The notes below the pieces were generated by a model. The model worked only from the letters and a program-made list of their open reading frames with translations, did not search any database and was not told the origin of the DNA. The translations under genes were made by a program, and so were the position numbers. 32,933 nt of DNA from contig JBNGIO010006309.1 of NCBI GenBank assembly GCA_049999805.1, positions 1 to 32,933 on the forward strand, written 5' to 3'. Source of the stretch: Folioceros fuciformis. Lineage: Eukaryota. This document shows, piece after piece, positions 4,155 through 30,212 of the stretch; the first letter of the stretch is position 1, and every line of letters starts with the position of its first letter.

Positions 4155-5815
4155 GTCTCCTCAAGGTCAACATAACAACCCGAGGAGGTTGAGCTGTGGA
4201 ATCACGGGCTTCAAAACCTACAACCGCAAGAGCCAGCACTCCGTAGGTCCAAGCACGACGGCGATGGCATGACGTGACGATCCCGATACAAATTCTGGTG
4301 AGCTTCCCCGGACCCTAGCGGCCATGCCTTGGCATACTGGTACAACTACCGCTAGCACCGTCAAGATGCCTGGTTCCACCTTTCAATGGCCCAGTGCGAC
4401 ATGGCCCACGCAAATCTGAGCGCACGCCTCCACAGTGTCGCCCGGCGGCTGACTCGTACAACTACCGCAGGGCCTCGTCCAGGCGTCCGTCGGCCTAGTC
4501 TAGCAGTAACGCCCACTACACCGCACTCCAAACCCCCTTCCCTTCCCTTAACTCAATCCCGTCCGAGCTCTCTACACGCCTGGACGCGCGGCCTGCAGTT
4601 TGCGTGTAGGTATCAGCTACGCACCTACTCCCCTACTCCGCCCCGCCTACACTCTGTCTACATACATACACAAATACGTGCTCCCGGCACAGGGGTATCA
4701 AAACTTAATATGCTTACATTAAATGTCATATTCGATGCAATCACAGCCTTGCATGCTAAGGATTTGAACAAACAAGAAGGCCCTGATTAAAAGAGTTCTG
4801 ACCCACATAACACTGATCTAAATGAGTGCTATGTCTTTCTTATCCCGCTCTCTCATGCAAAATTAACAGATCTTAATTCTAAGGCTATTATAATAAGATT
4901 GAACCCCCATTGCCAACAAAAGAACAATGAGTCCATGAAAGGCAAGCTCATGCCATCACCAAGCTTGATAAGCATATGAATATGAATGTAAACATCAATA
5001 CAAGGGTAAGCATGGATAGCTTTCGGACCTGGAAAAAGAAATTACAAGAAGTAAACAACCAGAAAAGTAGGTTTAGATTTTATCATTATCCTTAAGAAGC
5101 ACATTGCTCTAAGCATCATATGCCTTGGTTTGTCATACCGTTGTTTTAACATCAAAAATATGTTTCGAGGATTCTTTTTTTACTTCATACTAATTCCTTC
5201 GCCTGCATGAAATATAAGCTATGTTAGGAGTTTTGAAGAACTAATTAATATAAATTAACATCATCAAATAACAGTTGCCACATGAAGTTTTTACATTCTA
5301 ATGGTAAGTCCTACCATACATGTAGAACGTACTTGAATCATACTACTGGCATATTTGAAGGGAAAAAAAAAAAGAAGAAGAAGGATTTCATTATATGAGT
5401 GAAGATGTAGGTGATCGGTCCTAATAAACCTGCATCTTACATATATGTGTGCTAAATATATTTAATATGGCAAGTCATTTTTGATAAATCATGTAGTCAA
5501 AGAGAGTAATAATCAAAATCCATGAGTAAATAATGGCATTAAAATAACCTTGCAGGTAACAAGAGTGGCTCACTGTAGTAAATTATATTTGTACTTAAAA
5601 GTAAAACACAAGCATTTCCTCTTCTGCATGCACACGTACAGTTTCTTTTGCAAACCCAAAACTTTGCTTTATGATTTGCGGTTTGGGTAGGGCAGCCAGT
5701 CTATGCTTTGGTTTTCCGGTTTAGGATCTAACCTCAGCAATCGTTGAATGGATCTAAACAGCAATCGGATCTAAACTCAGAAAAGTTGAATGGATCTTGC
5801 AAGCTCTGCCGACAT

Positions 5816-8769: not shown

Positions 8770-10202
8770 CCTCTTAAATGGTACTCCTCAACTGTCTTAA
8801 GAACTGATCTCTAACTCATGAACTATGGTAAAAATTTTACTATATCACATCCAAAGCAATCTCCTTAATATTTAAAGAAGACTAGTTCATGAATATCAAA
8901 AGAGCTACTAAGGTGTGCTTGAAGTGTTCATGATATTATGGAATTATCTTGTGCATGCATCCTTTTTAGTACTTAATATGTAAGTAATAAATAGTTCTGG
9001 ATTTAAGACTTATGAGTTGTCATCCCATCTTACGTATTGTCCAAGTTTGAATTATATCATATAATTTTGTGCCTTACACAAGTGTAAAAGTATATCATGC
9101 AATGAGCTCATGATATAGCCAAAGCTAGTACATGAGTTATGTAGATATTTTTTATATGTAAATATGTTGAACATCTCACTATACTTAATTAAGCTGAAAA
9201 AAAAAAGAAGAGGAACACAGAATTTGTGGGGTAGGAGTGGTGGAGGAGATAGACCCACGAAAAGTAGAGAAAAAAAAAAAAAAGCATTGATAAACTACCG
9301 TACTGAACAATGAAAAATAAAATTATCAAATATATATTTTATAATTTGGTTCTGGATAACCATGGTTCAGCTATCATATCATACTCTTCTATATTCAATA
9401 AAAAATGCAACCAACTCTTTACTCTACCTAGTTAACTCTTCATTCAACCAAATTAAGACTCATTTTCACAGATTGCCACATAAGTTTGATTGAGTGCCCA
9501 ATTCATTCATCTACTTCTACTTGTCATTCCTTCACGTGATGAAAGCTTGGAATTTCATCTGCTATGCCATAGCATCTTAAAGCATATGAGGTTTGGTCTA
9601 TGCAATTCTATCCCAAACATACCTCTTAGGTCCAGAATTAAACTTGTGCATCTTACTTATCTCATGCATTTCAAACTTTCTCTTCCACAATAGCTTTTGC
9701 AACAAAAGCTTTATCTTCCACAACATAGTTTCTACAACAAGAGCTTTCTCTCTTGCTGCCATTCTCTCTCACTCCCTCTCCTCTCTGCTTTGCCTAGCCC
9801 TACTCTTGTTGCTATGTGGGGCTCCGCAGATCTCCCACGTCGAACCAGAGTACTAACTTTAGATGCTTTATAAACAATTTCAAGAGCCTACATCTCACAT
9901 AAATATTCTAAGAGTTCTTGAAAGCCGAAATGAGTTCATGATACTACCTAAACAGTTCTGAGCGGCCTCTCAGAAATCGGGGCCGGATGCCTGCCAAACT
10001 GCCGGTGAGAGACGGGAGGAAGATGACGCTGAAGTATCCTTCTTGATGGGAGGAAAGTATTTCGGAGCAGTTCATTTCCTCAGTCGTTGTGAGTGGCGAT
10101 TCGGTGTCCAGGTTTAGGAAGGTGGCGACCAAAGCGACGCAAGAATAGAGATGGGAGGAACGGATTTTTGATTTTGTCAGTCGGGGCTCTTCAAGATGTA
10201 GT

Positions 10203-11428
10203 TCACGGGAGGCCGGGGGGCAGCGAGGGTTTTGCAACTTCCAGCAGACCACATTTGCTGATGACCACGGATTTGAGAGGCCGGTTCCAGAAATTGCGAG
10301 CGTTGGCAGCGCGATCGTCCCCCAAGAACTCTGCGATGTCGTTGAACTGCCGAATCCTTTCGCTAGGCTTGTAGGTAGGAACCAAGGCGATGCTGGCGAT
10401 CACGTCCAGACCTGCACAAGGCAAGCAGCGTCAACCAGCGCTGTTACCGGGATTGCAGAGCAGCAGCAGGTCGGGAGAGGGACAAGGAGGAGGGGCCAGG
10501 CGACCTTCCAGCACAGTCCCGAAGACGACATTGCCGTTGTCCAGCTGCGGCGCCGGCCCCGGCCCTGCGGACGCCACAAGCGCATGGCGGCATCAGCACA
10601 GACAGTAGTATCAACAACGCTGGGGAAGACGCGGAGGCAGAGAATCGTACCTGTGGTGATGAGGAATTCCACGTTGCGGTAGTCGGAGCTCAGCTTGAGC
10701 TCTTCCTCGTCGTCATTCTCCGCGAGGCAGAGTGAGACGGTGCCAGGGCGGACGTGGCGGAGCTTGAAGGAGCTAGCGCTGATGGTCTCGGGGTTCCGAT
10801 CCAACGCCCGGGGTCTCGCCACCTCGCCGCGGTCCCGGGAGCCTTGCCGACCCGCTTGGATGTACTGGCCGGAGAGGACGCGGTGGAAGATAGAGCCTTC
10901 GTAGGAGGAGCCCGCGGCGCCTGTCACCATGCCCTTGAAATTGGCCACCGTCTGCGGCACCTGTCGGCCGTAGAGTCCGATCACGATCCTCCCTAGCGGT
11001 TCCCCGTCGGAGCAGATCTGCGAGGCGTCCCCGAGGGTGCGATCGGCGCGGCTAGCGCTGGGGCAGATGCTCACGTCCAGGAACACCCGGTCCGTGATGG
11101 TGGTGTCCGGGGCGGGGTTGAGGGCTGGTCCGACCGGTTCCGCCTCTTGCTCCTCCTCTGCTCCGGCCCGAGAAGGGGCCGCGACCGACGCGATGCCGGC
11201 GGTCAGGATCAGTCCCACCTCCCTGCGCCTGCACCGCCAGCTGTTGCCCGCTGCCTTTTCCTCCACGGAGGCGCTGGCCCGCATCAGCAGTCTATGATTC
11301 GGAGAGACCTGCCTGCTCCGCCTGCTCGGCTGCGCCTGATGAATCCATGGCTTGGGTCTGCATAGGCAGGAGGAGGGTTGGTGCAGCCTCTGGGGAGAAG
11401 TGGTCCAGGCCGCTGTGGTAGCCGCCAT
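10203..11428 (-). CDS. CYP28: Thylakoid-lumen cyclophilin-type peptidyl-prolyl isomerase CYP28; 3 exons, 348 aa
   Basis: Exons 11428-10651, 10564-10505 and 10411-10203 total 1047 nt in frame. Ser/Arg-rich transit peptide, twin-Arg + hydrophobic + A-G-A Tat lumen signal, then TITDRVFLD, LGRIVIGLYG, VSLCLAENDD..YRNVEFLITTGPGPAPQLDNGNVVFGTVLEGLDV and TYKPSERIRQFND.AEFLGD.RA.NAR..WNRPLK, as recalled for plant CYP28. Confidence 0.93.
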
Positions 11429-12499
11429 CGCTCTTCCGGTGGGATGCTACATGGATCTTAGCCTGTCTACTCCCGCATTGCTCCTTCCTGTTCAGACGGT
11501 GGCCGTGAAATCTGCATTCACAAGCTTGATGCTTTCCAAGATCAAATCCTGCCAAATGTGTAACTCGAGCAGAGTAATTTGAGAGGCATCAGCAACCTGC
11601 CTTCCCTTCCATTCAGTGTGTATCCCACAGTGTAATCAGCTCGGGTCGGATCAGGAGCGGTGTATGGTAATGCCTGATATGAGTGATCGGTTGCCACCAA
11701 TCACGACTCGCCCAGCCTGGCCTGCCAGGTTGCCTTGTAGGGCCCAGTCTCCGGCAGATTCAACGGGGACGGGGAATGGAGAACCTACGTTTCGGATTGC
11801 AGAAGCCTCCACGCTTATACCACCACAGTCGCAAGGAAGAGGACTGACAACAAGGAAAGGGACCGAGACGACACAGCAGATACGCAAGATGTCACGTTAC
11901 AGTGATCTTTTTATGGCATTCGGCATGAAACGAACTGCCAGGCTTACACTTGCAATTCCGGCAGCTGCATATCCCAGTAGGTCAAACAATGCATATCCAG
12001 AAAAGCCCCGCACTCGCTGGCAGCCAGCAATGCTATCGCTCATTATTCAAGCAGCTCAGCCTGGAAAAAAAAAAAATTCTCTAACACAAATACATGGACC
12101 TGCAATAATGGCTGTAGGATGCGAAAACCAGGACGGCGGTACGCAACTCCCCGCCATTCCAAGTCCTCCAACGGATGACCCACACCTCGCAGTCCCAACC
12201 CTCTCATCTCGTAACTTAGATGACCACCTAACACCACGCCATTGCTACAAGGAAGAACGATGAGGATACCAACCCCAAAACTAAGTACATAACCAACTGC
12301 ATCCCTCCATCTCCAGGTATCCGAGTTAATACCATCTGCATCCTGCTCTCCCAAGCTAAAGCCTACGAGGGCCAAACATGATGCAGCCCTATTCGCAGCG
12401 ACCTTCCCATAGAAGACGGATGTTAGTTAGAAGACGAAGCAGATCGTGGACCATATTTCTCAGTACATACATACTCTTGCACCAACCATGCAAGAACTA

Positions 12500-14286
12500 T
12501 CACTCATGAGGAGGGCCTGCAACCCCTGAAGGAGCGGGCTTAGACGTCAAAAGAGGTTGCAGGGCTTTAACAACAATACTCATATTCGGCCGGAAGTCGG
12601 CCTCATACTGCACGCATAGGGCAGCTACAGCCGCCATCTGCCAACAGAAGCAGTAAGTGAGAAAAACCCTTTGCAGTTCACCGGAAGGTGTTTCAGACGC
12701 CACTTGAGAGGGTCAAAAGCAATCAATCTGATTCCAGAGCAAATATCTCGGGTGGTTACCTTGGCTAAAGCCTTGGCAGGGTACTCTGCCTTTAACTTTG
12801 GATCCACACACTGTTTCACCTTATCTTCACTCAGCCTCGGCGTTGCCTGCACAAGAAGTCGTGAGACGAAAAAAAAGTTTGGCATAGTGCATATCCGAAG
12901 ATGCTGGGAGAGTAGCTGACCCATGTGACGAGACTTTGCTGTCCGCGCGGCATAGTATGGTCCACAGGTTTCCTGCCCGTGAGAAGCTCCAATAGAACCA
13001 CCCCAAAACTGTAAACGTCACTTTTGAGGGTCAACTGCCCTGTCATGGCGTACCTGAAACATGGCGCGGATCACCTCATCAAACAAAGCTGCTTAACAGA
13101 AGACAGAAGATAATGAATATGAAATAGAAAAGTTAACTCCAGGCTCCAAAGAAGAGGAAGAATCAGCAAGCGCGCGTACTCTGGGGCATGGTAGCCAAAG
13201 GTACCCAAAACACGAGTAGAATGGAGACGGGCAGCCATATCAGGAGCTTGGTTGGACAGGTTGAAATCTGCAACCTTCGCCGTATAGTCATCAAACAGCA
13301 GGACGTTGCTGGATTTGATATCCCGGTGTATTATAGGGGGTTGCACCTTCTCATGAAGATACTCCAGCCCCCTGGCCGCTCCAACAGCGATCTTCACTCG
13401 CTGCATCCAGTCCAACACAGGTCCTGGCTGCGCTCCCTTCACACCTTTCCGACCTACATAGACGGGAATCTCCTCAAGTGTAACTTGAACCAACACAAAC
13501 ACGCAACAAAACCCACGCTCCCGTCACAGCAGGCTTCTGGACAGATATGATACCGTACCATGTAGAATGTCGTGGAGCGACCCCATAGTGGCGTACTCGT
13601 ATGCGAGAATACGCAGCGGGCCATCCAAACAATACCCCACCAGATCCACTACATTCTCGTTTCTCAACCTGGAGACCATGGCCACCTGCAGCCACACGCC
13701 AGCGAGACCAAATTCAACACCGGAAAAGCAGCGTGCAAACCCGGAAAAGAACGCCTTTAAGCAAGCCCGATAGACCGTCACCCTTCCTCCCCCGCACAAT
13801 ACCTGGTTCAGAAATTCCTGGTCCGGCTGGTTACTAGCATCCAGCTTCTTGACGGCAGCCACCCGGCCATCCGAGAGCTTGGCGTGGTAAACTCTGCCAT
13901 AGGAGCCCTCCCCAATCAAGGCCTTGGCGCCAAAATTATCAGTGGCCTCCCTAATGTCATCGATACCGATGGCGGGCGCATTGATGGACTGCGCCCGGGC
14001 CTGCGAAGCTGCCGGGGGCGTGTTGTCCCGCCTGGGAACGGAGTGGTAGCCTGCATCAGAAATCCGGTGAGAAGCAAGCCCGAAAGCACAGTCCCGCGTC
14101 GCATTCCACAGATCCGGGAGTGCCCGGACAGAACCCTAATTCCCATCCCGGCCGCGAATCCCCTTCCCAGATCCCTTCGCCCGGCCTACCTGCGTTCTGC
14201 GAGTCTGCTGAAAAAAAAAAAAAAACTGGGGGTTCCACGTTCTTCCGGTCCTGCTCCTCCACCGCGCAGCAACACCATCCCCCCAT
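12500..14286 (-). CDS. PTI1: PTI1-like receptor-like cytoplasmic kinase (RLCK-VIII); 7 exons
   Basis: Phase-consistent exons 14286-14190, 14050-13803, 13685-13559, 13453-13180, 13053-12921, 12846-12760, 12637-12500. Motifs [104 protein letters not shown] and [19 protein letters not shown] are diagnostic of the PTI1 family. Confidence 0.96.
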
Positions 14287-15849: not shown

Positions 15850-16480
15850 TCCTCTAGATGTTTCGTTTTCTCAAGCATGGACTATTGGACAATCAATTTG
15901 GCGACAACCTAATTTTAACTTGAGGTATGATGTATGAACCACATGTTGGTGATCTTAAACTTGCTTGGTGACAAGATTGTCTCCTTTGCCTTCTTCAACA
16001 TTTCTTTAGCTCTAGTGGAAGCCCAAATAGATACCACTTCCTACACTAGCCATTTGTAAACCTCCCGTGTCGTTTTCACTACCCATATCATCGAGTTGTT
16101 TCAAAGTTGCTTGCACCACATCCTCCCCTCCGCACAAGCCAACAAGTTGCACACAAATTCCCAAATTTCCAAGGTTGTGTAGATGTTGTAGTAGGCATTG
16201 AAAATGCCTAGGTTCCATTGCTCCACTAGGTCTTTGGCACTTTTCAACCATAATGTGAAATTAGGATAGCTATGCCTCTAAATATTCGCTTGTTTCCACA
16301 AACTTGATGGGAGGTGTCACGACAAAGTTGAAGTAGGAGTCCTACAGGAAGTTACGCTGCCATCAAAGAAAAGAGAGTAGGAGTGCACAAAGTAGAAGGA
16401 AAGAAGGGAAGAAGAAGCGGAAGGAGAAGAATCAGAAGCAAGGGGAGTAGTAGTAGAAGTAGCGTAAGCTCTTAGCAATG
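15850..16480 (-). pseudogene. Possible highly degenerate retroelement gag-like relic
   Basis: The minus strand gives a Ser/Thr-rich stretch then VTPPIKFVETSEYLEA*LS*FHIMVEK, reminiscent of the gag P-KF-G-...-W-F motif, with many stops. No LTR, PBS or pol found; boundaries are approximate. Confidence 0.25.
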
Positions 16481-16893
16481 AGAAGGTGAGAGAGTGAAGA
16501 TGATGAGGAGTTAGAATGTTAAGGCGTGTGCCGAGAGTTAATGGATAGTGGCTAATTCTTCCTATTGCCTCTACTAGCCAATTTGTAGCAACATAAGCTC
16601 TAATGTTGTCGATCGATGCTACCTCCTAATTGCTTTTATGGTTGTTATGCTCCTCTTCCAAGTTGTCTCTAACCGTGTGGTCCTTCTTACACGTACAACT
16701 ATCATAGTTGTTAGTCCATCAGACGTACATTAGTTGTATGTGTCTTAGTCAGAGTTTCATCTAAGGGCCTTGTTCTCCTTTGAACAACTCTTCCCTTTTA
16801 GTTTAACAAATGGTTCGATTCGTCTCGCAAGGTTTGAGATCTGATAATTACCTACCCTAACATACTTTAGTCCTACAATCTTTGTTGGAATTT

Positions 16894-17051
16894 GAAATCA
16901 CAAAGTAGACTAAAACATCAAAAAATAAAAATAACTTCAACCCGCCTTTCAACCTTTCATAAGAGAGATGGAGTTCGAAATCACAAAGTAGACTAAAACA
17001 TAAAAGAATAAAAATAACTTCAATCCGCCTTTCAACCTTTCATAAGAGAGA
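16894..17051. repeat. Tandem duplication, 83-bp period, 2 diverged copies
   Basis: GAAATCACAAAGTAGACTAAAACAT...CCTTTCAACCTTTCATAAGAGAGA starts at 16894 and again at 16977. Confidence 0.9.
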
Positions 17052-17280
17052 GCGCGTCAAGAAAGCGGACTTCGAACCATTCCGTGAGAAAGGAAGGCAT
17101 TACCTTGAACATTTGGGTATTTAGTGAAGATGAAAAATATTATAGTTAATCCCCCATCTCAATATAAATATGAATATAGAATACTTAACTACAAAGTTCT
17201 TTGATGAATTCAAATCACTTGCTTAGTATATGAAGTGTATAAAAAACATTATTTTTATGAGATTGTCTAGTACGTAGACC

Positions 17281-17338
17281 CCAAATATTTGGATTGTTAG
17301 TGAAGTGCAATCCAAATATTTGGATTGTTAGTGAAGTG
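17281..17338. repeat. Tandem duplication, 31-bp period
   Basis: CCAAATATTTGGATTGTTAGTGAAGTG occurs at 17281 and 17312. Confidence 0.9.
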
Positions 17339-17712
17339 TATGATTAAGGAGGATTTTGTTATGAAGATGATCTCAATATAGTTTGAAAATATAATAAAGA
17401 TGTATTTTTTCAAGAAAGATCTAAAAGAATTACTCTTGTTATAAGTACTTATATGTAAATTTGGAGCGTTGAAAGTGCGTTCACTTAGCAATTCACAAGG
17501 GAGCGGTGATCCATGGGACAACGATCACCATGAGTAGAAGCGATGATAGAGCGTGGTACAACTTGGGCAGTGAGTGATGGAGCATGGTAGAGCAAGAGCA
17601 TGATGGAGCGTGGTTGTATGGAGCATGAGTGATGATGGAGTGTAGAAGTCAAGAAATATCTAAAAGAATTACTCTTGTTATAAGTACTTATATGTAAATT
17701 AGGAGCGTTAAA

Positions 17713-17913
17713 TGTATGAGGGTTTTAGGTTAAGTAGTTTGATTATACATACAACCCGCGCTTTAGGGTTAGATAAAGTTAGGTTTAATAGTCGTTATAA
17801 CGGTCGCTGCGTGAACCGTGGAGTCACCTTCGAGTGACTATGTAAAGCACACTTGTGCCACATCCCTCAGTTCTAATTTCCTATCCAATATGTGTATTTT
17901 CTAATCCGCTACT
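17713..17913 (+). repeat. 5' LTR (201 bp, TG...CT termini)
   Basis: Direct repeat of 23489-23689 with 6 substitutions by hand alignment; immediately followed by the PBS. Confidence 0.95.
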
Positions 17914-17925
17914 TGGTATCAGAGC
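17914..17925 (+). promoter_or_regulatory. Primer-binding site complementary to initiator tRNA-Met
   Basis: TGGTATCAGAGC directly after the 5' LTR, the standard plant copia PBS. Confidence 0.93.
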
Positions 17926-18955
17926 AGGTGCCAAGGCGTTGAAGTGATCCACCCGCCTCCTGTCAAGAAGATCCAATTTCTGGACAGAATGCAAATGGAT
18001 TGCTTCAATACCCTGCACAGGTGTTAGTAAATGGAGTAGAAACGAGCCATGCATCTTCTAAGGCGGGCTCGAATTCCTGCAGGAAGAACCTCCAAGACGT
18101 CGGCAATGTGTACCTTGTGATGCTCCAGAATCTTGACAGCGACGGTGGTCAGAGATGTGGTGTCGTGCTGAATTGCACACGAGCGAGTGTGATTCAAGGC
18201 AGCAGTGAAGTTGTCGGCGATGGAGTGCGTACCTATTTTGGTGCGCAGTAACCTGGTGTGAAGCGATGGATAGTTGCGGACGTGCCGAACATCGCTTGCC
18301 CACAAATCAGCAACGCTCGCGATACCGGAGGTCCTTTAACAGAGGACGAGGGCAGCACCCACTGCCCCGTGACTCTCTGTCGGACTATCTGTACCAGAGT
18401 GTATCCGAAGGGAGAAGACGATATCAGCACCAACGTACCAGTGTTTCATCGCCTTCCACAGTCAGGAATCCCCATCATCGACACGCGGCCTGCCCAAATC
18501 GCACATCGTGCTCGCCTGCACAAGGAAACACCAACCATGACCACTCAAGTTATCAATTCGGCTGCGACAAAGTTTTGGAGAGCGTGAAAGAAATTTCACA
18601 GATCTTGCTGGATTTCACTATCTCCACTACTAGAAAATCACAGCAAAATCTTGAGCATTTGGACTACTTACGCACTAGAGTAGACCAGTTAGACGTTCAC
18701 ATGTGTAGCCTGGACTTACGACTTCTTGTGTTCTTGCAAGCTCAGCATAATAACTCATTGAACCAGACTGTGCCTTCCTCTACAGGCACACATTCTGGTA
18801 GAGTATGTCTGAACTGTGTTCCAGATCCAACCAGAGATCACTCGTTTCCTTCACAAACATGAAGGCCTGGAATGCAAGAAGAGGAGAGTGACAGTGGCCT
18901 CTTTGGCCTGTCACTGGAGGACGACGCGCTGTACACACTAACATCTTTCTTCAAG

Positions 18956-21900
18956 ATGGCTGAAGGACCAGACACCAATCGTTCTCATAGTCAGAGTGGG
19001 AGCAGGCGCAACAGTGGAGTCGACAACCAATNNNNNNNNNNTCCTCAGCCACCACATCCAAGGAGATGTGGGATCATCTGGCTATGGTGTACCACTCAAA
19101 TGACATGATGTCCAGGATGTCTGCACATACAAGGTTTCATTCTCTGAAGATGCACGAGGGTCAGCCATTGGACCAGTTCATCTCCAACTTTAGATCAGCA
19201 TGACTCCGCCTGGAACAGATAGGCAAGCCAGTTAGTGAGCAGGATGCTTGCATGAGGCTCCTGGCTGCTCTACCTGCAAGCTATGCAAGCTTCGTGACAA
19301 GTCAGAATGCAGTGCTGCATTTGGGGCAGCAGCTCGCAGCTATGACTGGAAGGAAAGAGGAAGAATTTCCTACCTTGAATGTCAACGAGCTAGTTGGTGC
19401 CTTGATGCAAGAAGAGGCTGGTCGTGCTGCTTCGAAAAGTACGAGAGGGCAGGCTCTCTTTACTGCCAAACAGAAGTGGCCAAAAAGGACTCTTAGCAAG
19501 CCCAATACAGGCAAAGGAAAAGGGACGTCACCTAGAGAAGCGTCCACCAGCAAAAAGAGGACTGGTAATTGTAATTGGTGTGGCCTCCCTAATCATTGGG
19601 AGCGGGAGTGTCGTAAGAAAAAGAATGGAGAGCCACGGAGAGCTGCAGCACCTGAAGCCAACATAGTGGCAAAGAAGGAGAAGTCAGCTTCCCCGTCAGT
19701 CCTTCTAGTTCAGTCCACTCCCAGCACTAAATATGTTTGCGAGCACAAGTCGTCCCAAAACAATACAGAGTCTAAGAAACCGCGAGTCTCACCACATGCA
19801 CTGACTGTATGCTTGTCAACTACTGTAACACATCATCAGTCATTCTGGTATGTAGACTCGGGGGCCACCGCACATATTTGCCACGACAGATTGGTTTTCT
19901 TTGGTTACACCGCACACAGTATTGGTCAAAACGTTGTATTAGGTGACGATAGTGAACTACCAATTAAAGGGGTAGGCACTGTGCACTTACGCCTGCAAAA
20001 TGGGGGCACACTCTCACTCCAAAACATACTTCACGTTCCCACAATCACGAAAAATCTGTTGTCGGTGTCTCAGCTCACACAAAACCACAGTTATGAGATT
20101 ACCTTCCGCGGGTCCATGTGTGTCATTCGAGTGTCAGGCAAGACTGTTGCCTTGGGGAAGCTAGTCCATGATCTCTTTATGTTGGATGTTACGAGTATTC
20201 CTGCACCATCTGCCCAGGTTGCTAGAGTTAGTTCACATGTAACAAATTCAGAGGTTACAAAAATCTGGCATATGTGATTCGGACATCCCAACCCTCGCAA
20301 GTTGCAGGACATGACTAAGCAGGACCTATATGCAGATGGTGTACCATCTAATTTAAGTCCCTTACCTTTTTGTGAAGCGTGTGTATATGGGAAGCTTCCA
20401 CGAGCTCCATATCCAAAAGGAGGTGGCACTAGGGCGACAGAGGTATTGCAGTTGGTCCATGCAGACCTATGTGGACCAGTGTCCTCACCCTCACTCGGTG
20501 GAGGCCTTTACTTCTTGACCTTCATCGACGATTACAGCAGATATTCATATGTTTACATCCTCAAATTGAAAAGTGAAGCATTTGAATATTTTAAGGAATA
20601 CAAAACCTTGGCAGAACAGCAGACTGGAAAGAAGTTGCGTTGCTTACGCACTGATAATGGTAAGGAGTTTGACTCGAATGCCTTCAATTCTTACTGCAAG
20701 TCCTTGGGCATTGCTCGTCAATTTACTGTCCCTTACAATTCTTCACAGAATGGGGTAGCAGAAAGACGGAATCGTTCTGCACAGAATGTTGCTCGAAGCA
20801 TGCTCAAACAGGCTGGATTAGTGTTGGCATACTGGGGTGAGGCCATCACAACAGCAAACTACCTGTACAATAGGCTGCCCGGCAAGTCTACCAATGGCAA
20901 AACCCCATATGAGCTCTGGTGTGGACGCAAGCCTTCAGTGCAGCATTTCCGTGCTTTTGGGTCTCCGGCTTATGCGTATGTTCCTAAAGAAAAACGCACC
21001 CATCAGAAGCTGTCAGACCGTGCAGAGAAGTTGCTGTTCATTGGATACACTGAAGGTGTCAAGGCATATAAGTTGATCAATCCAGTCACTTACCAGGTGC
21101 AGCATGCCCGTACTGTTATCTTTGATGAAGCATCGTTATTGAGTTCTTCTATTCCTGCATCTGTACCCCTCGATCTCTCCTTTGAGTTTGAAGACCCACC
21201 CGGCGAGCTTGCAGTCTTTGATATGTCCCCTCACAGCATATCTCTGCCTGCTGAAAGTCATGACATTTCATGTGAAGAGGAGGAAGTTCTGGAAAATCAA
21301 GATGCCGTTCCTGAAAAACAGTCACATGAAAATCATGACGTACCTGAAGTACCTGATGACATGCAAGCGGATGTGGATCCAGCATCAGCACCTGAACCAG
21401 AACCTGAACTTGTTCAAGTTCCAGCTCCAAGTTCTCGTCCTCAGCGTCCTCGAGCTGCCCCAGTGCCGTACGACCCTGCACAATGGACTACACGGCGCAG
21501 TCATACAGATTGGACTACTGGTGAAGTTACCACCAGCGTACCTACCATTCTTGATCCAGTGGGGGACCCTTCGGAGGAGCCGGTATCAGCTCTTGTAGCA
21601 GCACTCCAGAATCTCTCTCCAGTCTCATTCACGGTGGAAGAAATTCAGGCTTTGGCTGTTGCAACCCCGAATCCTGCTGATCCTGCAAGCATGAAAGAAG
21701 CATTCAGTGGACCTGATGTTGCTCACTGGAAAAAGGGAGTGCAGGAGGAATACGACTCACTTATAGAAAATGGGACATGGTCTCTTGAGCCGTTGCCTCC
21801 TGGACGCCGTGCCATATCCAACAAGTGGGTGTTCAAGACCAAGTATAACCAAGATGGGCCCATTGGACGCTATAAAGCAAGGCTCGTTGTGCGAGGATTC

Positions 21901-23274
21901 TCTCAGAAGCCTGGGGAGGACTACTTCGAGACTTTCGCCCCTGTAGTTAAGTTCCCAACCTTGCGCTTGGTGTTGGCACTTGCAGCCCACAGTAACCTTG
22001 ATGTCCACCAAATGGACGTAAAAACTGCATTTTTGCATGGTAAGTTGGAGGAAGAAATTTACATGGCACAACCTGAGGGGTACGTACAACCTGGACAGGA
22101 ACACCTGGTCTGTAAGCTGCATAAGACCATTTACGGTCTCAAACAAAGCCCGAGGGCTTGGCACACTAGGATCGACCAGTTTCTGGTCAAGTGTGGATTT
22201 ATAAGGGGGACAGCAGATTCTAACTTGTATATTCTAAGAAAGAAAGAAGTTTACCTGCTGCTGCTGGATTACGTCGATGACTTAATCATGGCTGCTTCCA
22301 CTGGACCCAATAACCTGCTGAAAGTGGTCAAGAATACGCTAAGGTCAGAATTTGACATGACTGATGTAGGCGAGTTGAAATTTTGCCTTGGCGTTGAGGT
22401 GACTCGAGACAGGAAGGCCGGGACACTTACTTTATCACAAAAGAAGTATATTGGAGATAGTCTTCGGGGCTTCCATTTCTTCGAGGCACATGGAACAAAC
22501 ACACCATTGACAGCTGGGGTTAAGTTGACCAGGGATCAAGCAGCCACAACCAATGCAGACATGCAAGAGATGAGCAAGATCCCCTACAAATAAGCAGTTG
22601 GGACGTTGATTTATCTCACCTGCCTGACGAGGCCGGACATAGCGTATGCAGTGCACCTGGTTTCGCAATTCTTGGCGAATTATGGGCGTGACCACTGGAC
22701 TCAGGTAAAACGAATTTTTAGGTACCTGAAGCAGACTATGGCATACAACATAGTGTACCGAGCCTCCAGCAAGCCAGTGCTGAGTCTTGAGGGAATCTGC
22801 GACAGTGATTGGGCCGCAGACCCCGATACCAGAAAGTTTATTGCTGCATATATTTTCACAATTGCAAGTGGACCCCTCTCGTGGTCCTGCAAGAAGAACA
22901 ATTCAATATGCCTCTCCAGCACGGAGGCAGAATACAAATCACTAACTGTTGCAGCAAAGGAAGCTATCTGGGATAGGAGGTGCCTGGAAGATGCAGGACA
23001 CCGCCAAGAAACACCTACTGTGTTGAACTGCGACAACCAGGGGGCCATAGCACTAGCCAACAACCCAATTTTCCATGCCCGTACAAAGCATATTGAGGTG
23101 TACCATCACTTCATTAGGGAAGTGGTGGCCAACGAAGAAGTAACTATAGCGTACATCAATACCTCTAAAAATCCTGCAGATATCTTGACGAAGGCATTAC
23201 CAAGCGAGGTACACTTGAGACACTGTGAAAGACTTGGGCTGTTACCTGGAGATAGCAACAAGAACAAGACTTGA
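18956..23274 (+). pseudogene. Copia gag-pol polyprotein pseudogene (3 in-frame stops; assembly gap at 19032-19041)
   Basis: gag (TSKEMWDHL, LLAALPASY), zinc knuckle CNWCGLPNHWEREC, protease WYVDSGATAH, integrase WHM*FGH..CEAC / VHADLCGP / RTDNGKEF / QNGVAERRNR, RT YKARLVVRGF / QMDVKTAFL / YVDD, RNase H DSDWAAD / STEAEY / CDNQGA / ADILTKAL. Stops at 19201, 20275 and 22591 are in the same frame. The start ATG at 18956 is inferred across the gap. Confidence 0.93.
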
Positions 23275-25437: not shown

Positions 25438-26288
25438 CTCTGGTTTAGTCAATTGTTTGCAGAACTTTTGCGTGGCTGAGTTTTTTCAATTTGTCCCGTT
25501 TATCTTCATGTAGAAGACTTCTTCCCTATCTTCCTTTTCATTTTGAAGTCTTCCTATTTCCTTTGAATGGGTTCACATCAGTCACCAACATGTAGAACCT
25601 TGTTTTCTTCTGACCTGGACAACTTTCTTTTATTTTATTGCTCCCTCAAGGAGCGCGCCAGACTCCTTTTCAACGAGTATTGAACGCCAAAAGTTGGTAT
25701 AAAAATATGGCTTCACCGAAAGGCAAAGATCTGCGGGTTGCTTTCCTTTTCTTTTATCTTGAACGACTGGGAATGACGTCTAAATACCCCCACAGAAAAG
25801 AAATACAGGCAGGTACGTTACCTGCAGCTGAACTACCTACGACAAGCAAGCAGGCCGGGTAATAGCAGAGCAGGCCAGTTCGAGAAGTGGACACAAGAAT
25901 CTATGAGACGAGTTTGAAGTAGGGAAAGGCAGCCCACAGTGCTGCAGCTTCTTGGCTTTCCCACAGGACGTTTCGGCGAAGCCGCAGGGTTTGGGCCTCC
26001 CGACCTGGTGCTGCAGGGCACTGGCCAGGTCGATCCACTCGCGGCCTTGCTGTAAGCGTGTAAGTTACGAGGCTGCTGCCTTGTTGTGGCTTTGCTATGC
26101 CTTGCTTGGTTTGGTCAACCCTGCAGATGCGGATCTGTTTCTGACTTGTTCCGTCTCAGCTTATGTGACGCCCAGATACGTCGCCATTTGGTGTGGAAAG
26201 GCTGCAATTTGATTGCTTCCGAGCTCCTCCTCACGGTTTCTCGGCGTCGTACGTGCTACAGGTTTTGCGGATCGGTAGACCCCGAGCC

Positions 26289-27617
26289 ATGGGGGGCGGG
26301 GTTCGGAGAGCCGCGCTTCCAGGCTGCTTGGGACTGGCTTTCTTCCTGTTGCTCGCGCTCCTGCCGCTCTGCAATGCTGACATCGTGCATTCCAGTATTA
26401 AGGATGATAACCGGAACATTATAGTGTTCGAGACCTTCGGGTTTGGCTCCCAGGGTCAGGTGGATGTCATTCTCAATAGTCTTGATGTGCCGACGGTGGA
26501 CAAGGCCGGCGTTGTGTCCATTCACTCCATGGGGTTTTTCCTCATCACAGGGGAGGCCCGTCTGCAGGTTCTGGTGGATCAGGAGCAAAATCCCAATGAG
26601 TGCCCGCTGGATGACCAGCACGTCAAGCTTTTGTTCCGGCTGCAGGATGTGGCTAAACTCCCTTTCACCTATAAAACCGGCGTCAACGCGGATGAGTATA
26701 CGCTTATGTTCGCAAACTGCGAGGGGAAGCAGGTATCTATGGAGGTCACCACTGAGATGTACAATTGGGTGAAAGGAGTGAAAAGCTACCTCCCTGCAGG
26801 TCAGACGCAGCTGCCGTCTCTTTATTTCTCCTTTGCCACGATTTATGTCTTGCTGTTCGTCGTCTGGGTGTACGTATGCTTGAAGCAGAAAGAAACGGCC
26901 CACTCCATCCATCTGCTCATGGGGCTCTTAGTTTTCTTAAAAGTGTTGAATTTGATGTTCGAGGCGGCTGACAAATCTTACGTGGAGAAGACTGGGACAC
27001 CCCATGGATGGGATATCGCCTTCACAATATCCAGCTTCTTCCGGGGAGTGATGCTCTTCATAGTCATTGTACTGATCGGTACAGGCTGGTCCTTCTTGAA
27101 GCCGTTTCTGCAGGACAAGGAAAAAAAGGTTCTCATGGTGGTCATTCCCTTACAAGTCATGGCAAACATAGCCAATATTGTGATTGAAGAGACAGGGCCT
27201 GCCTCAAACCGCAGCTGGTTGACGTGGAAGCAAGTGTTTCTCCTGTTCGACCTCATCTGCTGCTGCGCAGTCTTGCTCCCCATCGTCTGGTCGATAAAGC
27301 ATCTTCGAGAAGCATCTCAGACAGACGGCAAGGCTGCCAGAAATGTGGTGAAACTCACCTTGTTTCGGCATTACTACATTGTTGTGGTGAGCTACATCTA
27401 CTTCACGCGGATTGTGGTTTTTGCGCTCAAGACAGTGACGACTTACAACTATCGGTGGACAAGTGATCTTGCGGAGGAGCTGGCCACTCTTGCATTTTAC
27501 TTATTCACTGGCTATAAGTTCCGGCCTGTTCCTCACAATCCCTACTTTGTGCTTGACGAGGAGGAGGAGGAAGCCACAAGGGAGGCGGCTCTCAAAGACG
27601 ACGATTTTGAACTTTAG
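26289..27617 (+). CDS. Lung seven-transmembrane receptor family protein (GPR107/108; plant CAND6/CAND7-like), intronless CDS, 442 aa
   Basis: ATG 26289 is followed by a signal peptide (LAFFLLLALLPLCNA|D), a luminal domain (EYTLMFANC, YLPAGQTQLP) and seven hydrophobic segments. Family motifs: GTPHGWD, LIGTGWSFLKPFLQDKEKKVLMVVIPLQV.ANIA, WSIKHLREASQTDGKAARN..KLTLFRHYY, C-terminal NPYF.LDEEEE...DDDFEL. Confidence 0.93.
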   Translation: MGGGVRRAALPGCLGLAFFLLLALLPLCNADIVHSSIKDDNRNIIVFETFGFGSQGQVDVILNSLDVPTVDKAGVVSIHSMGFFLITGEARLQVLVDQEQNPNECPLDDQHVKLLFRLQDVAKLPFTYKTGVNADEYTLMFANCEGKQVSMEVTTEMYNWVKGVKSYLPAGQTQLPSLYFSFATIYVLLFVVWVYVCLKQKETAHSIHLLMGLLVFLKVLNLMFEAADKSYVEKTGTPHGWDIAFTISSFFRGVMLFIVIVLIGTGWSFLKPFLQDKEKKVLMVVIPLQVMANIANIVIEETGPASNRSWLTWKQVFLLFDLICCCAVLLPIVWSIKHLREASQTDGKAARNVVKLTLFRHYYIVVVSYIYFTRIVVFALKTVTTYNYRWTSDLAEELATLAFYLFTGYKFRPVPHNPYFVLDEEEEEATREAALKDDDFEL

Positions 27618-28503
27618 GAACCTTGCAAGTGATTTGTTTCATTTCAGCACTCTGAATTAGGTCTATGCTTGGCCACTCATGGGAAAGATTTCTCTTTTCC
27701 GTGAAGAGAGCCCAGATGAAGCAACAGCTCATGCAGAAGCCCCAGAAATATGCTGGCCTGTGTGCAGCAAGGTGGCATGCTTCCTCAAGTTCCGTCCAAC
27801 TTCTAGGTGTCACTTTTGGGGCAACTTGATGTGTAAGTATCTCAGTAGAGCGTGGGCTGCACGAGAATTCGTTTGCAGAATTCCTTTTCCAGACTCCAAC
27901 TTTGAGGGCCTCATGCTTACACCGCATCTCGACCCCGGTGCGGCTGATCTGACATAAGATTGGCAGATGCAGGTGAAGCGAATTGATTTTAGCTTTTTTT
28001 TGACCCGGTGTGTTCCAGTATTCCCTTGTGAGGGACGAACAGGTGACAAGTCCCTAGGCGGCAATGAACTGTGATTTTGATGCACGCAGCGCCTCATTGA
28101 GAACGTCAATACGTACTGCAATTTGCTCACGGTCACAGACAATTCCGACCGTCTCCAGCCAGTGAAGATTGTTTGACTCGGCAGCCGTGGCACAAAACCA
28201 GCCGGTCGGATGCGACACCTGGAGGCGGTCGACATGCATGAAGGGCTCTACCACATAACAGTGCGGGCAAGCAGACACGTGGCCGTCCACATGTCCCCTG
28301 TGTACGTTGTGCTTCCAGGAGGCCAGCCTTGGCTCCCAAGTCTGGTGGATGCAATGTGCGTCCTCAAAGCATCGTTGCGGAAGCTCTTTGGCTGAATCCC
28401 TTAGGCTGCCGCGGTGTCTGAGGCGGGGGTACAGCAAGTAAACGGGTCAACGTGTAACGATTTGTGAAGGATTGGCAGGAGCGCAGGGCTAAAAGCATCC
28501 ATC

Positions 28504-29470
28504 ATGGCAGCCAAGGAGGAAGGCTACTACCAGTCCGGCTATGGGGCGGGTACGGCGTCCCCGACGCAGCCAGCAGCAGATGTGCCCGCCGTCGTTCCTC
28601 CCGAGGAAAGGCAGACTTATTACATCAACATCCCGATCAGAGCGCTCACTTCGGATGTGGAAGAGGAGCACTTGGAGAGGCTGGCACTGTACTACACCAT
28701 CTTCGGAGCCATTTTCGTGGCCGTTGGCGTAGTCGGCATCGTGTTCCCCATCGTCTTTGCTCTGGCTGTGGAGCAGCTCATAGCGTGGCTGCTGGTTCTC
28801 ACTGGCGCCGTCTCGCTTCTTCATTTCCTGCTCGTCTGCGGCGCACCGGGGACTACGTCATTCTTGCTTCTCGGATTTCTTCATCTTGGTGTCGGCATAT
28901 GGATGCTCCTACAGCCGATCGCGGGCGGGACGATGCTCCTCTTCGTCCTTGCCGGGTGGTTTCTAGCTCATGTTTGTCGCATCTCCTTTCTCTTGGATTG
29001 TTTTTGTGAGCGGTTTGTTGATGAATCCGCAACCTGAGACCGGCAGTAATACGCGTGCGTGTGCTGGCAGGGAGTGTTGAAACTGCTCATGGCATGCCAA
29101 GTGCGGCAAATGAGCTCCTGGCCGGCAGTTTTGGTCAGCGGGCTACTGTCCATCATCCTTGCGTTCACCATTCTAGCCCTTGCGCCGACATACGGGCTGG
29201 TGCTGATAGGAATTGTGTTCGGATCCGACTTGCTTGTGTCCGGGCTATCCATGCTGTTGATCGCGTACATGGCCTACTTAGGTGAGCTTTGGTGGCTCCT
29301 GTCTGAAGTTGTCTGAAACTTGCAAAATTGTTCTCATCAGGGGTTAAGGCACTAACACGATGGTTTTCTCATCAGGCCGAAGATCTCGGGCTGCCTCTGA
29401 TGCACAACGAGAACCTCTTCTGCCAGGACCCGGCCAGGTTGCAGGCAGCCGTGCTGCTCCAGGAGCTTAG
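28504..29470 (+). CDS. HdeD / DUF308-like polytopic membrane protein; 3 exons, 257 aa
   Basis: Exons 28504-28971, 29071-29281 and 29376-29470 total 774 nt in frame with GT-AG introns. About six hydrophobic helices with the Gly-patterned hairpins of HdeD-type proteins (FGAIFVAVGVVGIVFPIVFALAVEQLIAWLLVLTGAV; LGFLHLGVGIWMLLQPIAG; GWFLAHGV; SGLLSIILA; LIGIVFGSDLLVSG). The exon 3 acceptor is less certain. Confidence 0.75.
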
Positions 29471-30212
29471 AGGGTCAGCATCGGGCTTTTACTTCATGAG
29501 ACATCGATTCTGCGCCCGACTGTCTTGTTGTGCCTCCGGCAGTTGCAGTGTCCTTCGACAATGGCACGTCACCGTAACGATCATGTATTAAATACAGAGG
29601 AAATGTTTATGTGTACTGGGACCCTGTTTTCAGTTTGTGTTGTCTGCCATTGCATTGTAGCTTGATGGTCTGTCGACTACATCGCTCCGAGCCGATCAGC
29701 TTTCTTATCACCTCTTGACACGCCTTAGGAACTTGATTAGGCTGAGGCTGTGTGCACCTCACTATATAGCACTGGGCCGTTTATTTGGTAGATGTGAGAA
29801 AGCTCCAGTTTGCTCCAGGTCCCACCGATTCGTGTCCAACAATGGGTTGTAAAATATACACATGAGGGGATATCCGGTGATGCCTTCAGCCAACACTTAT
29901 CCCTGCCAACATTTGGTTCCTTAGGCTCTGGGGTGCTCTTAAGGATTGATACTCTTAAGGATTGATATTTAAGAGTCGCTTTCCATGTGTACCCCAACCA
30001 AATCAATGTGGACAAAATAAGTTATAGGGCACTTTCCATGTTCCATAACACTTGCACGTGGCCAAAAACCAGAAAGTGCTAATGCTAGATTTTAAGTGCC
30101 AGATTTTAAGGGCGCTGACCGGGACTAGTATTGTGGTTTTATATTTTACCTATTTTACATTTTATATTACCAGCATAAATTATAGTGTAAATTATGGGAC
30201 CCTTCATAAGGG

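Follow-up and report, generated by a model that had tools for sequence, protein, structure and literature searches.

The window, by which we mean the whole stretch of 32,933 nucleotides of the Folioceros fuciformis contig JBNGIO010006309.1 analysed here, carries at 28504-29470 of the forward strand a DUF308 gene of three exons with a 257-aa product. The parts of this gene and of its probable transcript, along with two conserved motifs of the encoded protein, are as follows.

28086..28503, + strand: probable mRNA 5' leader, of approximate extent (contig of run X1 extrapolated upstream)
28504..28971, + strand: exon 1, 156 codons; ATG, acidic/proline-rich N-terminal tail, TM1-TM4 up to 'WFLAH'
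28612..28647, + strand: conserved N-terminal motif QTYYINIPIRAL, residues 37-48, predicted cytosolic (from the alignment)
28972..29070, + strand: intron 1, GT..AG, 99 nt, phase 0; skipped in contigs from 4 of 4 runs
29071..29281, + strand: exon 2, 70 codons + 1 nt; end of TM4, predicted cytosolic loop (KLLMACQVR), TM5, TM6
29282..29375, + strand: intron 2, GT..AG, 94 nt, phase 1; skipped in contigs from 4 of 4 runs
29376..29470, + strand: exon 3; basic C-terminal tail (contains EPLL) and TAG stop
29411..29422, + strand: C-terminal Glu-Pro-Leu-Leu motif (...AQREPLL...) (from the alignment)
29471..29890, + strand: probable 3' UTR, extent approximate (X1 contig: 90 nt past base 29800)

All four public runs yield transcript-like contigs that omit exactly 28972-29070 and 29282-29375, and a contig without both introns represents the spliced form. 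None of the listed matching runs is recorded as RNA, their RNA status is a guess of the search tool, and only the spliced joints of the contigs are used here. The contig of run X1 (1612 nt) has no differences from the window, with base 28300 lying at contig position 215, and the contigs of runs X2, X3 and X7 come from other organisms at 90-95% likeness to the window. The contigs point to a leader longer than 400 nt; its start near 28086 assumes that the X1 contig is collinear upstream, as contigs cannot show the start site. The joint of intron 2 was reported as 29279/29374 with a 'cut +2', and 29281/29376 fits equally. The two spliceosomal introns that a first, sequence-only reading of the locus had proposed, with transcripts suggested as the means of checking them, are thus borne out.

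The homologues agree with this gene model. P0004, the nearest homologue of full length (257 aa; the orthologue from the hornwort Nothoceros), is uninterrupted over both exon junctions. Other plants contribute six predicted products that are truncated (P0005, P0020, P0021, P0053, P0054 and P0058), and all six leave the alignment right after 'WF.xH', with a Val codon, which is the pattern that a common phase-0 GT donor would produce; the position of intron 1 is taken to be shared. In comparison with the contigs of the relatives, 30 of the 36 listed coding differences affect the third base of a codon and 32 leave the amino acid unchanged (31 further differences are unlisted); three of the four replacements are located in the tails. 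The streptophyte DUF308 branch is under strong purifying selection. The GC content of the coding sequence is 0.583 and that of the introns 0.477, with neighbouring genic bins at 0.53-0.60, and the same window holds plant genes (an ORF with CAND6/7_N and GOST_TM at 26169-27617, a cyclophilin and kinase exons) as well as plant retroelements. The locus is a real, expressed and functional nuclear plant gene that encodes a polytopic membrane protein.

Membrane core and family membership

The hydropathy of the spliced protein gives six hydrophobic segments (approximately residues 69-87, 93-111, 118-136, 144-162, 175-193 and 202-220), and the Gly/Pro pattern of this core is HdeD-like, as the sequence-only reading had it. 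By the positive-inside rule both the N- and the C-terminus are predicted to face the cytosol (K+R counts: N-terminal tail 4; loop 4-5 and TM4 end 2; C-terminal tail 5; three opposite loops 0). A fold model was made with AlphaFold2 on P0004, which is approximately 80% identical to the F. fuciformis protein, and has a pLDDT of 82.9 and a pTM of 0.74, with a core at 90-97, helices over residues 57-240 and tails that are disordered (residues 1-50 and 241-257, at pLDDT 48-60). In this model the fold consists of three tandem two-helix hairpins that form a six-helix antiparallel bundle.

The spliced 257-aa protein scores 151.0 bits (E 1.3e-48, one domain) against an HMM built from 75 prokaryote-type DUF308 sequences, with protein residues 53-236 aligned to HMM positions 14-197, and the best of 200 shuffles against the same HMM reaches 3.6 bits. 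Taken singly, the exon pieces score 20.7 and 18.2 bits against Pfam DUF308 (PF03729), below the cut-off of 25, and P0004 passes the cut-off at 38.8 bits; of the four full-length plant members tested, three pass. DUF308 is found in 30 of 30 Atlas matches. The F. fuciformis protein is a member of the HdeD/DUF308 family, and the profile search proposed as a check on that identity agrees with it.

The conserved positions tell the same story at the level of single residues. The signature columns G71, G78, P85, G104, G134, P141, G160, W176, G183, G206, G210 and G217 are conserved in at least 85% of the 75 prokaryote-type rows and in 77-100% of the 26 eukaryote rows, and S182 is also among the columns common to plant and prokaryote-type DUF308 proteins. 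Two polar columns are kept to differing degrees on the two sides, with K163 in 96% of the eukaryote rows vs. 57% of the others and D212 in 88% of the eukaryote rows vs. D in 40% and N in 41% of the others.

Distribution and history of the streptophyte branch

Every row of the homologue search that carries an organism name (12 of 12) belongs to a moss, liverwort or lycophyte, and look-up of further members adds Spirogloea, Chara, Mesotaenium, Closterium, Ceratopteris, Chlorokybus, Netrium, Klebsormidium and Nothoceros. All named relatives are thus streptophytes (Chlorokybus, Klebsormidium, Chara, Zygnematophyceae, the three bryophyte groups, lycophytes and a fern), with orthologues at 53-80% identity across bryophytes and lycophytes; paralogues occur in liverworts as well as in lycophytes. 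A search with a plant-built profile returned 2433 representative clusters (50% identity), and among the best 150 of these there is a gap in score between streptophyte-type clusters, at 105 bits or more, and the approximately 190-aa prokaryote-type clusters, at 95 bits or less; names were looked up for 30 of the best 150, so that weaker members from non-streptophyte eukaryotes would be missed. The plant profile was also scanned against genomes of prokaryote species, where 80 pattern stretches contained no relative and the plant-specific motifs were not found. Outside streptophytes the family was prokaryotic in every search run, in keeping with the description of it as mainly prokaryotic.

No seed-plant member came up in any search, with hits named in part and clusters at 50% identity that could hide members. 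In the part of a published census available to us (PMC13069868, Table S8), DUF308 occurs in 109 of 115 bryophyte genomes (95%, or near-universal) vs. 3 of 300 tracheophyte genomes; in the available part of Table S4 of the same source it stands once in the Loss column, at what may be node N2 by tab count. These figures match the earlier impression that this is not a standard angiosperm family. From the lack of seed-plant hits in the searches, the lineage leading to seed plants seems to have lost the subfamily. A literature search on DUF308/HdeD and its family identifiers had no plant DUF308 protein among the matches listed and nothing that joined HdeD, horizontal gene transfer and land plants; the plant papers that matched DUF308 actually concern DUF3084, DUF3080 and DUF3082 and were set aside.

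Two trees separate the plant proteins from the rest of the family. In the first, 31 eukaryote rows and Klebsormidium split from 119 others with an SH-aLRT of 99, and in the second the streptophyte rows split from 74 others with an SH-aLRT of 97; both are quick searches with SH-aLRT as the sole support measure, many internal forks without resolution and long branches for Netrium, Klebsormidium, Closterium NIES-68 and the fern. Within the streptophyte clade the branching order is Chlorokybus, Chara/Klebsormidium, Zygnematophyceae and land plants, and the F. fuciformis protein is 83-85% identical to the Nothoceros sequence. A single streptophyte clade with an order roughly as that of the species means vertical inheritance since at least the streptophyte ancestor, and we consider it likely, taking identity and history together, that the F. 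fuciformis gene is an orthologue of an old, Streptophyta-wide subfamily. The sequence-only reading had spoken of a bacterial gene "domesticated" in this plant, and as a lineage-specific acquisition this idea has to be given up, with the family present as one clade in all nameable streptophyte grades from Chlorokybus to fern. Its author had also named, as grounds for abandoning it, homologues widespread across eukaryotes that follow the species tree; vertical inheritance holds within Streptophyta, and a wide spread across eukaryotes was not seen in the searches.

An orthologue of this age may still have come from elsewhere at the start: stem Streptophyta could have received the gene from a bacterium, perhaps a proteobacterium of soil or fresh water, with introns and tails gained there before vertical descent. 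Such a history is compatible with the preferred reading and adds a claim on origin to it. We would call it a real possibility that stops short of being probable. The eukaryotes named among the high-scoring hits are all streptophytes of the one clade, and an algal-led profile turned up no eukaryote source besides two of its own query rows (47 proteins scored among 7999 word-sharing candidates, in a non-exhaustive search). Prokaryotes carry DUF308 widely, as in 4 of 14 control genomes. The prokaryote-type sequences that best match the algal profile share 36-40% identity with the Chlorokybus member and come from a group with representatives in Steroidobacteraceae, Xanthobacteraceae, Pseudolabrys, Methylocella/Methylocapsa and further Alpha- and Gammaproteobacteria (best 80 listed, in a search with 577 of 600 matched stretches confirmed). 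However, the second tree does not make this group the sister of the streptophytes, and its prokaryote side is a polytomy. The weaker eukaryote members that a view of the best 150 of 2433 clusters could miss also count against an origin by transfer. In the available parts of PMC13069868, DUF308 has no whole-word match in Table S5, on horizontally transferred core domains, and the census records no DUF308 gain at any node, the latter because the domain is present in its prokaryote outgroup. A bacterial transfer at the base of the streptophytes is possible, with no donor or prokaryotic sister group resolved in the trees; the phylogeny of bacterial, algal, bryophyte and fern homologues that had been suggested as a check delivers the separate streptophyte clade but no sister group.

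An origin in the cyanobacterial ancestor of the plastid, with transfer to the nucleus, loss outside Streptophyta and perhaps a role in the plastid envelope, strikes us as very improbable. Many bacterial-type membrane proteins of plants do have an endosymbiotic history, but the N-terminal 55 residues are acidic in composition, unlike plastid transit peptides, which argues against such a peptide, and losses would be needed in glaucophytes, red algae and chlorophytes. Moreover, none of the best 80 prokaryote loci listed is cyanobacterial, which is a weak test given that the search was seeded with the proteobacterial-type group. Finally, a recent lineage-specific transfer into the plant, or bacterial contamination of the assembly (the contamination already discounted by the sequence-only reading), has the bacterial type of the family in its favour and nothing more, and is refuted by the two introns removed in transcripts, the flanking plant genes and retroelements, the orthologues across bryophytes and lycophytes, the intron position shared with other plants and the host-like composition; there is no sign here of recent import.

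Terminal tails and proposed location

The N-terminal extension of approximately 55 residues is acidic and proline-rich, as first described, with 9 D/E, 3 K/R and 6 P. Within it QTYYINIPIRAL aligns with RTYYINIPI[RH]PL of mosses, liverworts and lycophytes, similar stretches occur in Chara, Spirogloea and Closterium, and the prokaryote-type rows have gaps at this YYINIPIRPL-type motif. A Yxx-hydrophobic sorting motif in YYINI was considered and dropped, because Chara and Spirogloea do not keep it. At the other end of the protein, the columns of the EPLL motif hold P in 85%, L in 81% and L in 81% of the 26 eukaryote rows and gaps in 93% of the 75 prokaryote-type rows, and the Pro-Leu-Leu motif is also present in Chlorokybus, Closterium, Mesotaenium, Netrium and Spirogloea. 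By the alignment, both terminal extensions are additions specific to the eukaryote members.

The Leu-Leu pair (residues 241-242, positions 29417-29422) lies in the predicted cytosolic tail. The sequence-only reading had pointed to QREPLL while observing that it is no strict [DE]xxxLL match, and this description stands: the stretch D-A-Q-R-E-P-L-L has Q at -4, where [DE]xxxL[LI] calls for an acidic residue, with E at -2 and D at -6. The acidic position near the pair varies among species, with mosses having E at -5. The Pro-Leu-Leu tail would serve as a sorting signal of the dileucine type, one that adaptor complexes recognise and that directs the protein to a post-Golgi membrane, probably the vacuolar or prevacuolar one; we put this forward as a tentative assignment, drawn from the motif and its conservation.

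Once in such a membrane, the bundle, with its conserved buried Lys in TM4, Asp in TM6 and His, might form a narrow conduit or a pH-responsive element for protons or for small weak acids or bases. We regard this candidate function as speculative and unlikely. The proposal recalls E. coli HdeD, with its link to acid stress, and SatP and UreI, which are channel protomers of six helices.

[quoted passage not shown] Its own role is described as poorly understood in the part of PMC5861431 available, and the available part of PMC9769608 cites a report that it represses flagellum biosynthesis through LrhA, such that little function can be transferred from the family. The latter report would suit a bundle that acts as a scaffold or regulator, and a related departure from the vacuolar proposal is a different address, in the plasma membrane or ER, with Pro-Leu-Leu serving endocytosis or the binding of a partner. 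Judging by the model, the two conserved motifs in the disordered tails do resemble short linear binding motifs. Dileucine-type signals also drive endocytosis. The conserved polar residues K163, D212, H130 and H159 (P0004 numbering) lie inside the bundle, suggesting that the membrane core itself does something, and we hold a different address or a scaffolding role to be somewhat unlikely.

The gene neighbourhood of the prokaryote-type relatives gives no functional hint for the 80 closest loci. Within 1 kb on either flank the most frequent family is CreA, at 12 of the 80, followed by molybdopterin oxidoreductase, a sigma-70-like protein with DUF6596 and peptidase M20 at 8-10 loci each. That all parts should hold at once, i.e., a bacterial transfer at or before the Streptophyta stem, tails that bind adaptors, a vacuolar or endosomal conduit and a later discard by seed plants, seems to us decidedly improbable. 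If the transfer and the conduit were both true, this would be among the oldest gene transfers from a bacterium to the plant lineage and would open a first mechanistic way into the bacterial HdeD family, so far unexplained.

The streptophyte DUF308 proteins are an uncharacterised subfamily of a known family. HdeD/DUF308 is a very large prokaryotic family of membrane proteins (the 2433 clusters come from the plant-built profile alone), and its eukaryotic branch, present in every streptophyte algal class that could be named, offers a genetically tractable place to learn the role of the fold, with Marchantia, Physcomitrium and Anthoceros all transformable. The apparent loss in seed plants adds one more ancestral land-plant gene that lies beyond the reach of angiosperm models.

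Comparison with known systems

The best structural match overall to the P0004 model is a designed six-helix barrel, and its best natural neighbours are TMEM45A (Z 11.5), SatP (Z 10.4) and UreI (Z 8.9), all within the range under approximately 13 that is common for helical bundles. The succinate-acetate permease SatP (PDB 5ys3/5ys8/5zug) resembles the model in having six up-down helices of similar length (165 residues aligned, rmsd 4.0), and the acid-gated urea channel UreI (PDB 3ux4) likewise has six up-down helices (152 residues aligned, rmsd 4.2). By Foldseek, SatP and UreI have probabilities of 0.66-0.99, TM-scores of 0.43-0.56 on the target and E-values of 0.2-0.6, with no match to the PDB at E ≤ 0.001. 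A sequence search of the PDB gave no relatives at E ≤ 1, and a Pfam scan of the exon pieces gave no SatP or UreI family at E ≤ 10, only DUF308 with weak TMEM171 and DUF6131. With structural Z-scores inside the helical-bundle background, the analogy to these channels may reflect a shared arrangement only.

The tail can be compared with dileucine sorting signals. The [DE]xxxL[LI] signals of lysosomal and vacuolar membrane proteins include forms with Pro before Leu, as in tyrosinase and LIMP-II, and plant tonoplast examples. The streptophyte proteins are alike in having a Leu-Leu (or Leu-Ile/Val/Met) pair after Pro, with acidic residues near, in a disordered tail close to the last TM segment. This dileucine-like pair is kept from Chlorokybus to lycophytes, and the place of the acidic residue varies, where [DE]xxxL[LI] sets it at -4.

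In comparison with E. coli HdeD (NCBIfam NF007577, 'HdeD family acid-resistance protein'), exon 1 matches positions 10-116 and exon 2 positions 119-184 of 190, in collinear order, the Gly/Pro/Trp pattern agrees in all three hairpins and the C-terminus is likewise predicted to be cytoplasmic. The exon pieces score 16.2 and 27.3 bits vs. the equivalog cut-off of 189, and scores so far below it, even when summed, indicate a relative in the wider family and not an orthologue of HdeD. The plant gene is eukaryotic, with introns, and its protein adds approximately 40-50 N-terminal and 30 C-terminal predicted cytosolic residues that carry the conserved motifs. The prokaryotic DUF308 proteins of approximately 190 aa (e.g., of Steroidobacteraceae and Xanthobacteraceae) align end to end with the single domain of the plant protein but are without both tails and the Pro-Leu-Leu motif, and the streptophyte proteins differ from them within the core as well, by W155, P177 and a CGAPGTT loop.

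A transcribed and spliced plant gene

The DUF308 gene is transcribed, spliced as the sequence-only reading had proposed, and under purifying selection. As read from the sequence, its ATG-initiated frame (28504-29470, + strand) is interrupted twice and encodes a product of 257 aa.

Exons and introns of the DUF308 gene
28504-28971, + strand: exon 1, 156 codons with ATG start
28972-29070, + strand: intron 1, 99 nt, GT..AG
29071-29281, + strand: exon 2, 70 codons and one base
29282-29375, + strand: intron 2, 94 nt, GT..AG
29376-29470, + strand: exon 3, TAG at its end

Both introns are skipped exactly, at their GT..AG ends, in one contig from each of four public sequencing runs (X1, X2, X3 and X7), so that data from four studies show the spliced form. 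That these runs are RNA is a guess, and a contig lacking both introns represents the spliced form regardless. The X1 contig (1612 nt) has 0 differences from the window, and in a sequencing-run search 83% of sampled words were present in this run and about 5% in many runs of other organisms; the X2, X3 and X7 contigs come from other organisms in the 90-95% likeness class. Among 36 listed differences between the CDS and the contigs (31 more lie beyond these), 32 are synonymous and 30 affect third codon positions; of the four replacements, three map to the N- or C-terminal tail. It is from the spliced contigs and the mostly synonymous differences that we conclude transcription, splicing and purifying selection.

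The 5' part of the X1 contig (28086-28503, + strand) lies opposite a 130-aa frame without a Pfam hit (28054-28446, - strand), and this region holds either a DUF308 mRNA leader longer than 400 nt or two overlapping transcripts. About 95 nt here (28398-28493) are swapped for about 90 other letters in X2, X3 and X7.

The gene is a plant gene and contamination is excluded, as had been argued from plant genes nearby. The CDS has 58.3% G+C (GC3 65.1%) and the introns 47.7%, which matches the nearby genic bins (53-60%), and the neighbours include a plant seven-TM "candidate GPCR"/GOST-type gene directly upstream.

Neighbours of the DUF308 gene
10400-11446 and 13071-14135, - strand: cyclophilin-type PPIase frame with a long N-terminal extension, and protein-kinase exons (Pkinase, PK_Tyr_Ser-Thr), upstream
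19204-23274, + strand: Ty1/copia-like retroelement, three long frames (357, 771 and 226 aa)
26169-27617, + strand: single unbroken 482-aa frame; CAND6/7_N 104.7 bits, GOST_TM 116 bits
30568-32861, + strand: LINE-like reverse transcriptase/RNase H frames (119, 580 and 135 aa), downstream

The region is thus flanked by copia-like and LINE-like elements, the former with gag/zinc-knuckle, integrase, reverse-transcriptase and RNase H-like sequence as judged by eye. AT-rich blocks at 5001-10000 and 16001-18000 (34-41% G+C) lie between genic stretches of 50-60%.

Family membership and protein architecture

Taken singly, the two exon pieces score 20.7 and 18.2 bits against Pfam DUF308, under the cut-off of 25, and they align collinearly with the NCBIfam HdeD model (positions 10-116 and 119-184 of 190). 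Membership of the family, claimed earlier from sequence, is settled by the spliced protein, whose residues 53-236 match as a single domain, with 151.0 bits (E 1.3e-48), against an HMM built solely from the 75 prokaryote-type rows of our 101-sequence alignment (the other 26 being eukaryote), while the top score among 200 shuffles is 3.6 bits. The closest full-length homologue, P0004 of the hornwort Nothoceros, passes the Pfam cut-off with 38.8 bits. Of four full-length plant members tested, three pass, and DUF308 is present in all 30 Atlas proteins that resemble the Chlorokybus member.

The anticipated core of about six TM segments with HdeD-like Gly/Pro patterning is also present, with six hydropathy peaks and all signature Gly, Pro and Trp of the family retained. 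Hydropathy and an AlphaFold2 model of P0004 built with the 101-sequence alignment (pLDDT 82.9, pTM 0.74, core 90-97) together place a predicted six-helix bundle across residues 57-240. Lys and Arg number 4 in the N-tail, 2 at the TM4 end and loop 4-5, 5 in the C-tail and 0 in the three alternate loops, a distribution from which the positive-inside rule predicts that both tails face the cytosol. Among the conserved polar residues within the bundle (P0004 numbering), K163 is found in 96% of eukaryote rows vs 57% of the others and D212 in 88% of eukaryote rows (the others have D in 40% and N in 41%), while H130 and H159 vary little or not at all across ten land-plant sequences.

The terminal additions noted in the sequence-only reading prove to carry conserved motifs specific to the eukaryote branch: an N-terminal [RQ]TYYINIPI[RH]xL (window 28612-28647) and a C-terminal x-Pro-Leu-Leu (EPLL at 29411-29422). 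Residues fill the P, L and L columns in 85%, 81% and 81% of the 26 eukaryote rows, and the columns are gapped in 93% of the 75 prokaryote-type rows, with algal variants REPLL (Chlorokybus), EEPLL (Closterium), VPLL (Mesotaenium), LPLL (Netrium) and REPLV (Spirogloea). An acidic N-terminus is atypical of plastid transit peptides, and with 9 D/E vs 3 K/R in its first 55 residues the N-tail does not look like one. In P0049, a 1208-aa Spirogloea muscicola model, the DUF308 part occupies residues 997-1204, which reflects a genuine fusion or else the merging of two gene models.

Distribution and descent

A search with exon 1 passes 23 proteins among 503 candidates, and one with a ten-sequence land-plant profile passes 42 among 8000, the 12 named rows of the latter all being mosses (Ceratodon, Physcomitrium, Sphagnum), liverworts (Riccia twice, Calypogeia twice, Marchantia paleacea) or lycophytes (Selaginella three times, Diphasiastrum). 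In an exhaustive profile search covering 1.84 billion representatives, 2433 reach E <= 0.001, and 20 of these reach E <= 1e-30; among the matches listed, streptophyte-type clusters score at least 105 bits and the ~190-aa prokaryote-type proteins at most 95 bits. The 30 representatives looked up include algae (Spirogloea, Chara, Mesotaenium, two Closterium, Netrium, Chlorokybus, Klebsormidium), the fern Ceratopteris, further Riccia and Diphasiastrum paralogues, P0004 and, on the prokaryote side, a Parvibaculum MAG. No seed plant appears among the named hits of any of these homologue searches, which agrees with a Pfam census of 446 plant genomes that counts DUF308 in 109 of the 115 bryophytes but in just 3 of the 300 tracheophytes (PMC13069868, Table S8) and with the earlier remark that this is not a standard angiosperm family. 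In the desert locust midgut transcriptome, one transcript tabulated as differentially expressed has PF03729 (DUF308) and may come from the insect, its food plant or a gut microbe (PMC10484617).

Both trees are quick searches without bootstraps, with several long rows and many poorly supported deep forks, and both give the same split. In the first (151 rows, 194 columns, LG+C20), 31 eukaryote rows and P0092 (Klebsormidium) separate from 119 other rows with SH-aLRT 99; in the second, with nine long rows removed and 17 sequences of the best-scoring proteobacterial-type group added, the support is 97. Rooted on the prokaryote side, the branching runs from Chlorokybus through Chara and Klebsormidium, and next the Zygnematophyceae, to land plants; mosses, liverworts and lycophytes each cluster by group, the last two with two paralogues each. 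The window protein has the Nothoceros sequence as its partner (83-85% identity), and the two together adjoin lycophytes (SH-aLRT 95), so that a hornwort is the probable source of the window. From this clade and its order we conclude that the gene has been inherited vertically from the streptophyte ancestor, or an earlier one, onward. Six truncated predicted products from other plants (P0005, P0020, P0021, P0053, P0054, P0058) all depart from the alignment immediately behind "WF.xH" through a Val codon, as read-through of a phase-0 GT donor at the intron 1 site would produce. This implies an intron at the same place, so intron 1 is old as well.

An algal-led profile search found, among 7999 candidates, no eukaryotes beyond the profile's own members, and its top hits are ~190-200-aa proteins 36-40% identical to the Chlorokybus member, whose relatives (577 of 600 pattern matches confirmed, taxa from the best 80) are common in Steroidobacteraceae, Xanthobacteraceae, Pseudolabrys, Methylocella/Methylocapsa and other Proteobacteria. 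In the second tree, which samples no cyanobacteria, this proteobacterial-type group is nevertheless not sister to streptophytes. That the stem streptophyte received the gene by an ancient transfer is a reasonable reading, which we hold tentatively. In the census, the single DUF308 entry of the gain/loss table is a loss and Table S5, of horizontally transferred core domains, has no DUF308 match (PMC13069868); the missing gain is uninformative on origin because any domain in the prokaryote outgroup was counted as ancestral. The chromosome of the alphaproteobacterium Methylocapsa polymorpha has three separate DUF308 genes (open frames 213, 194 and 190 aa), so paralogy is common among prokaryotes too.

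Recent domestication is contradicted by the Chlorokybus-to-land-plant clade. What stands of the proposed domestication is that a genuine plant gene, inherited vertically, encodes a member of a bacterial-type family; every particular of the underlying observation is confirmed and its interpretation is partly supported.

Possible function and known relatives

We found no treatment of a plant DUF308 protein in the searchable literature, and the streptophyte subfamily has automatic database annotation and one census count with no description as such found. Flanking genes of bacterial relatives gave no functional hint. In our preferred reading, the conserved Pro-Leu-Leu tail may serve as a dileucine-type signal to a post-Golgi, probably vacuolar, membrane, and we offer this targeting, like transfer, as a hypothesis. 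In the same reading, and with less confidence, the bundle with its buried Lys, Asp and His could act on protons or on small weak acids and bases, as a narrow conduit or a pH-responsive element.

The window protein scores far under the HdeD equivalog cut-off of 189 bits, which makes it a relative within the family rather than an orthologue of E. coli HdeD. The role of HdeD is itself called poorly understood: acid resistance requires it at high cell density alone, and a repressing effect on flagellar genes is reported too (PMC5861431, PMC9769608). Sequence searches of the PDB gave no relatives and Foldseek with the P0004 model no match at E <= 0.001. A designed six-helix barrel (Z 14.7) lies ahead of all natural structural neighbours of this model, the best of which is TMEM45A (Z 11.5), followed by SatP, a succinate-acetate channel (Z 10.4), and UreI, an acid-gated urea channel (Z 8.9), such Z values being common for helical bundles.
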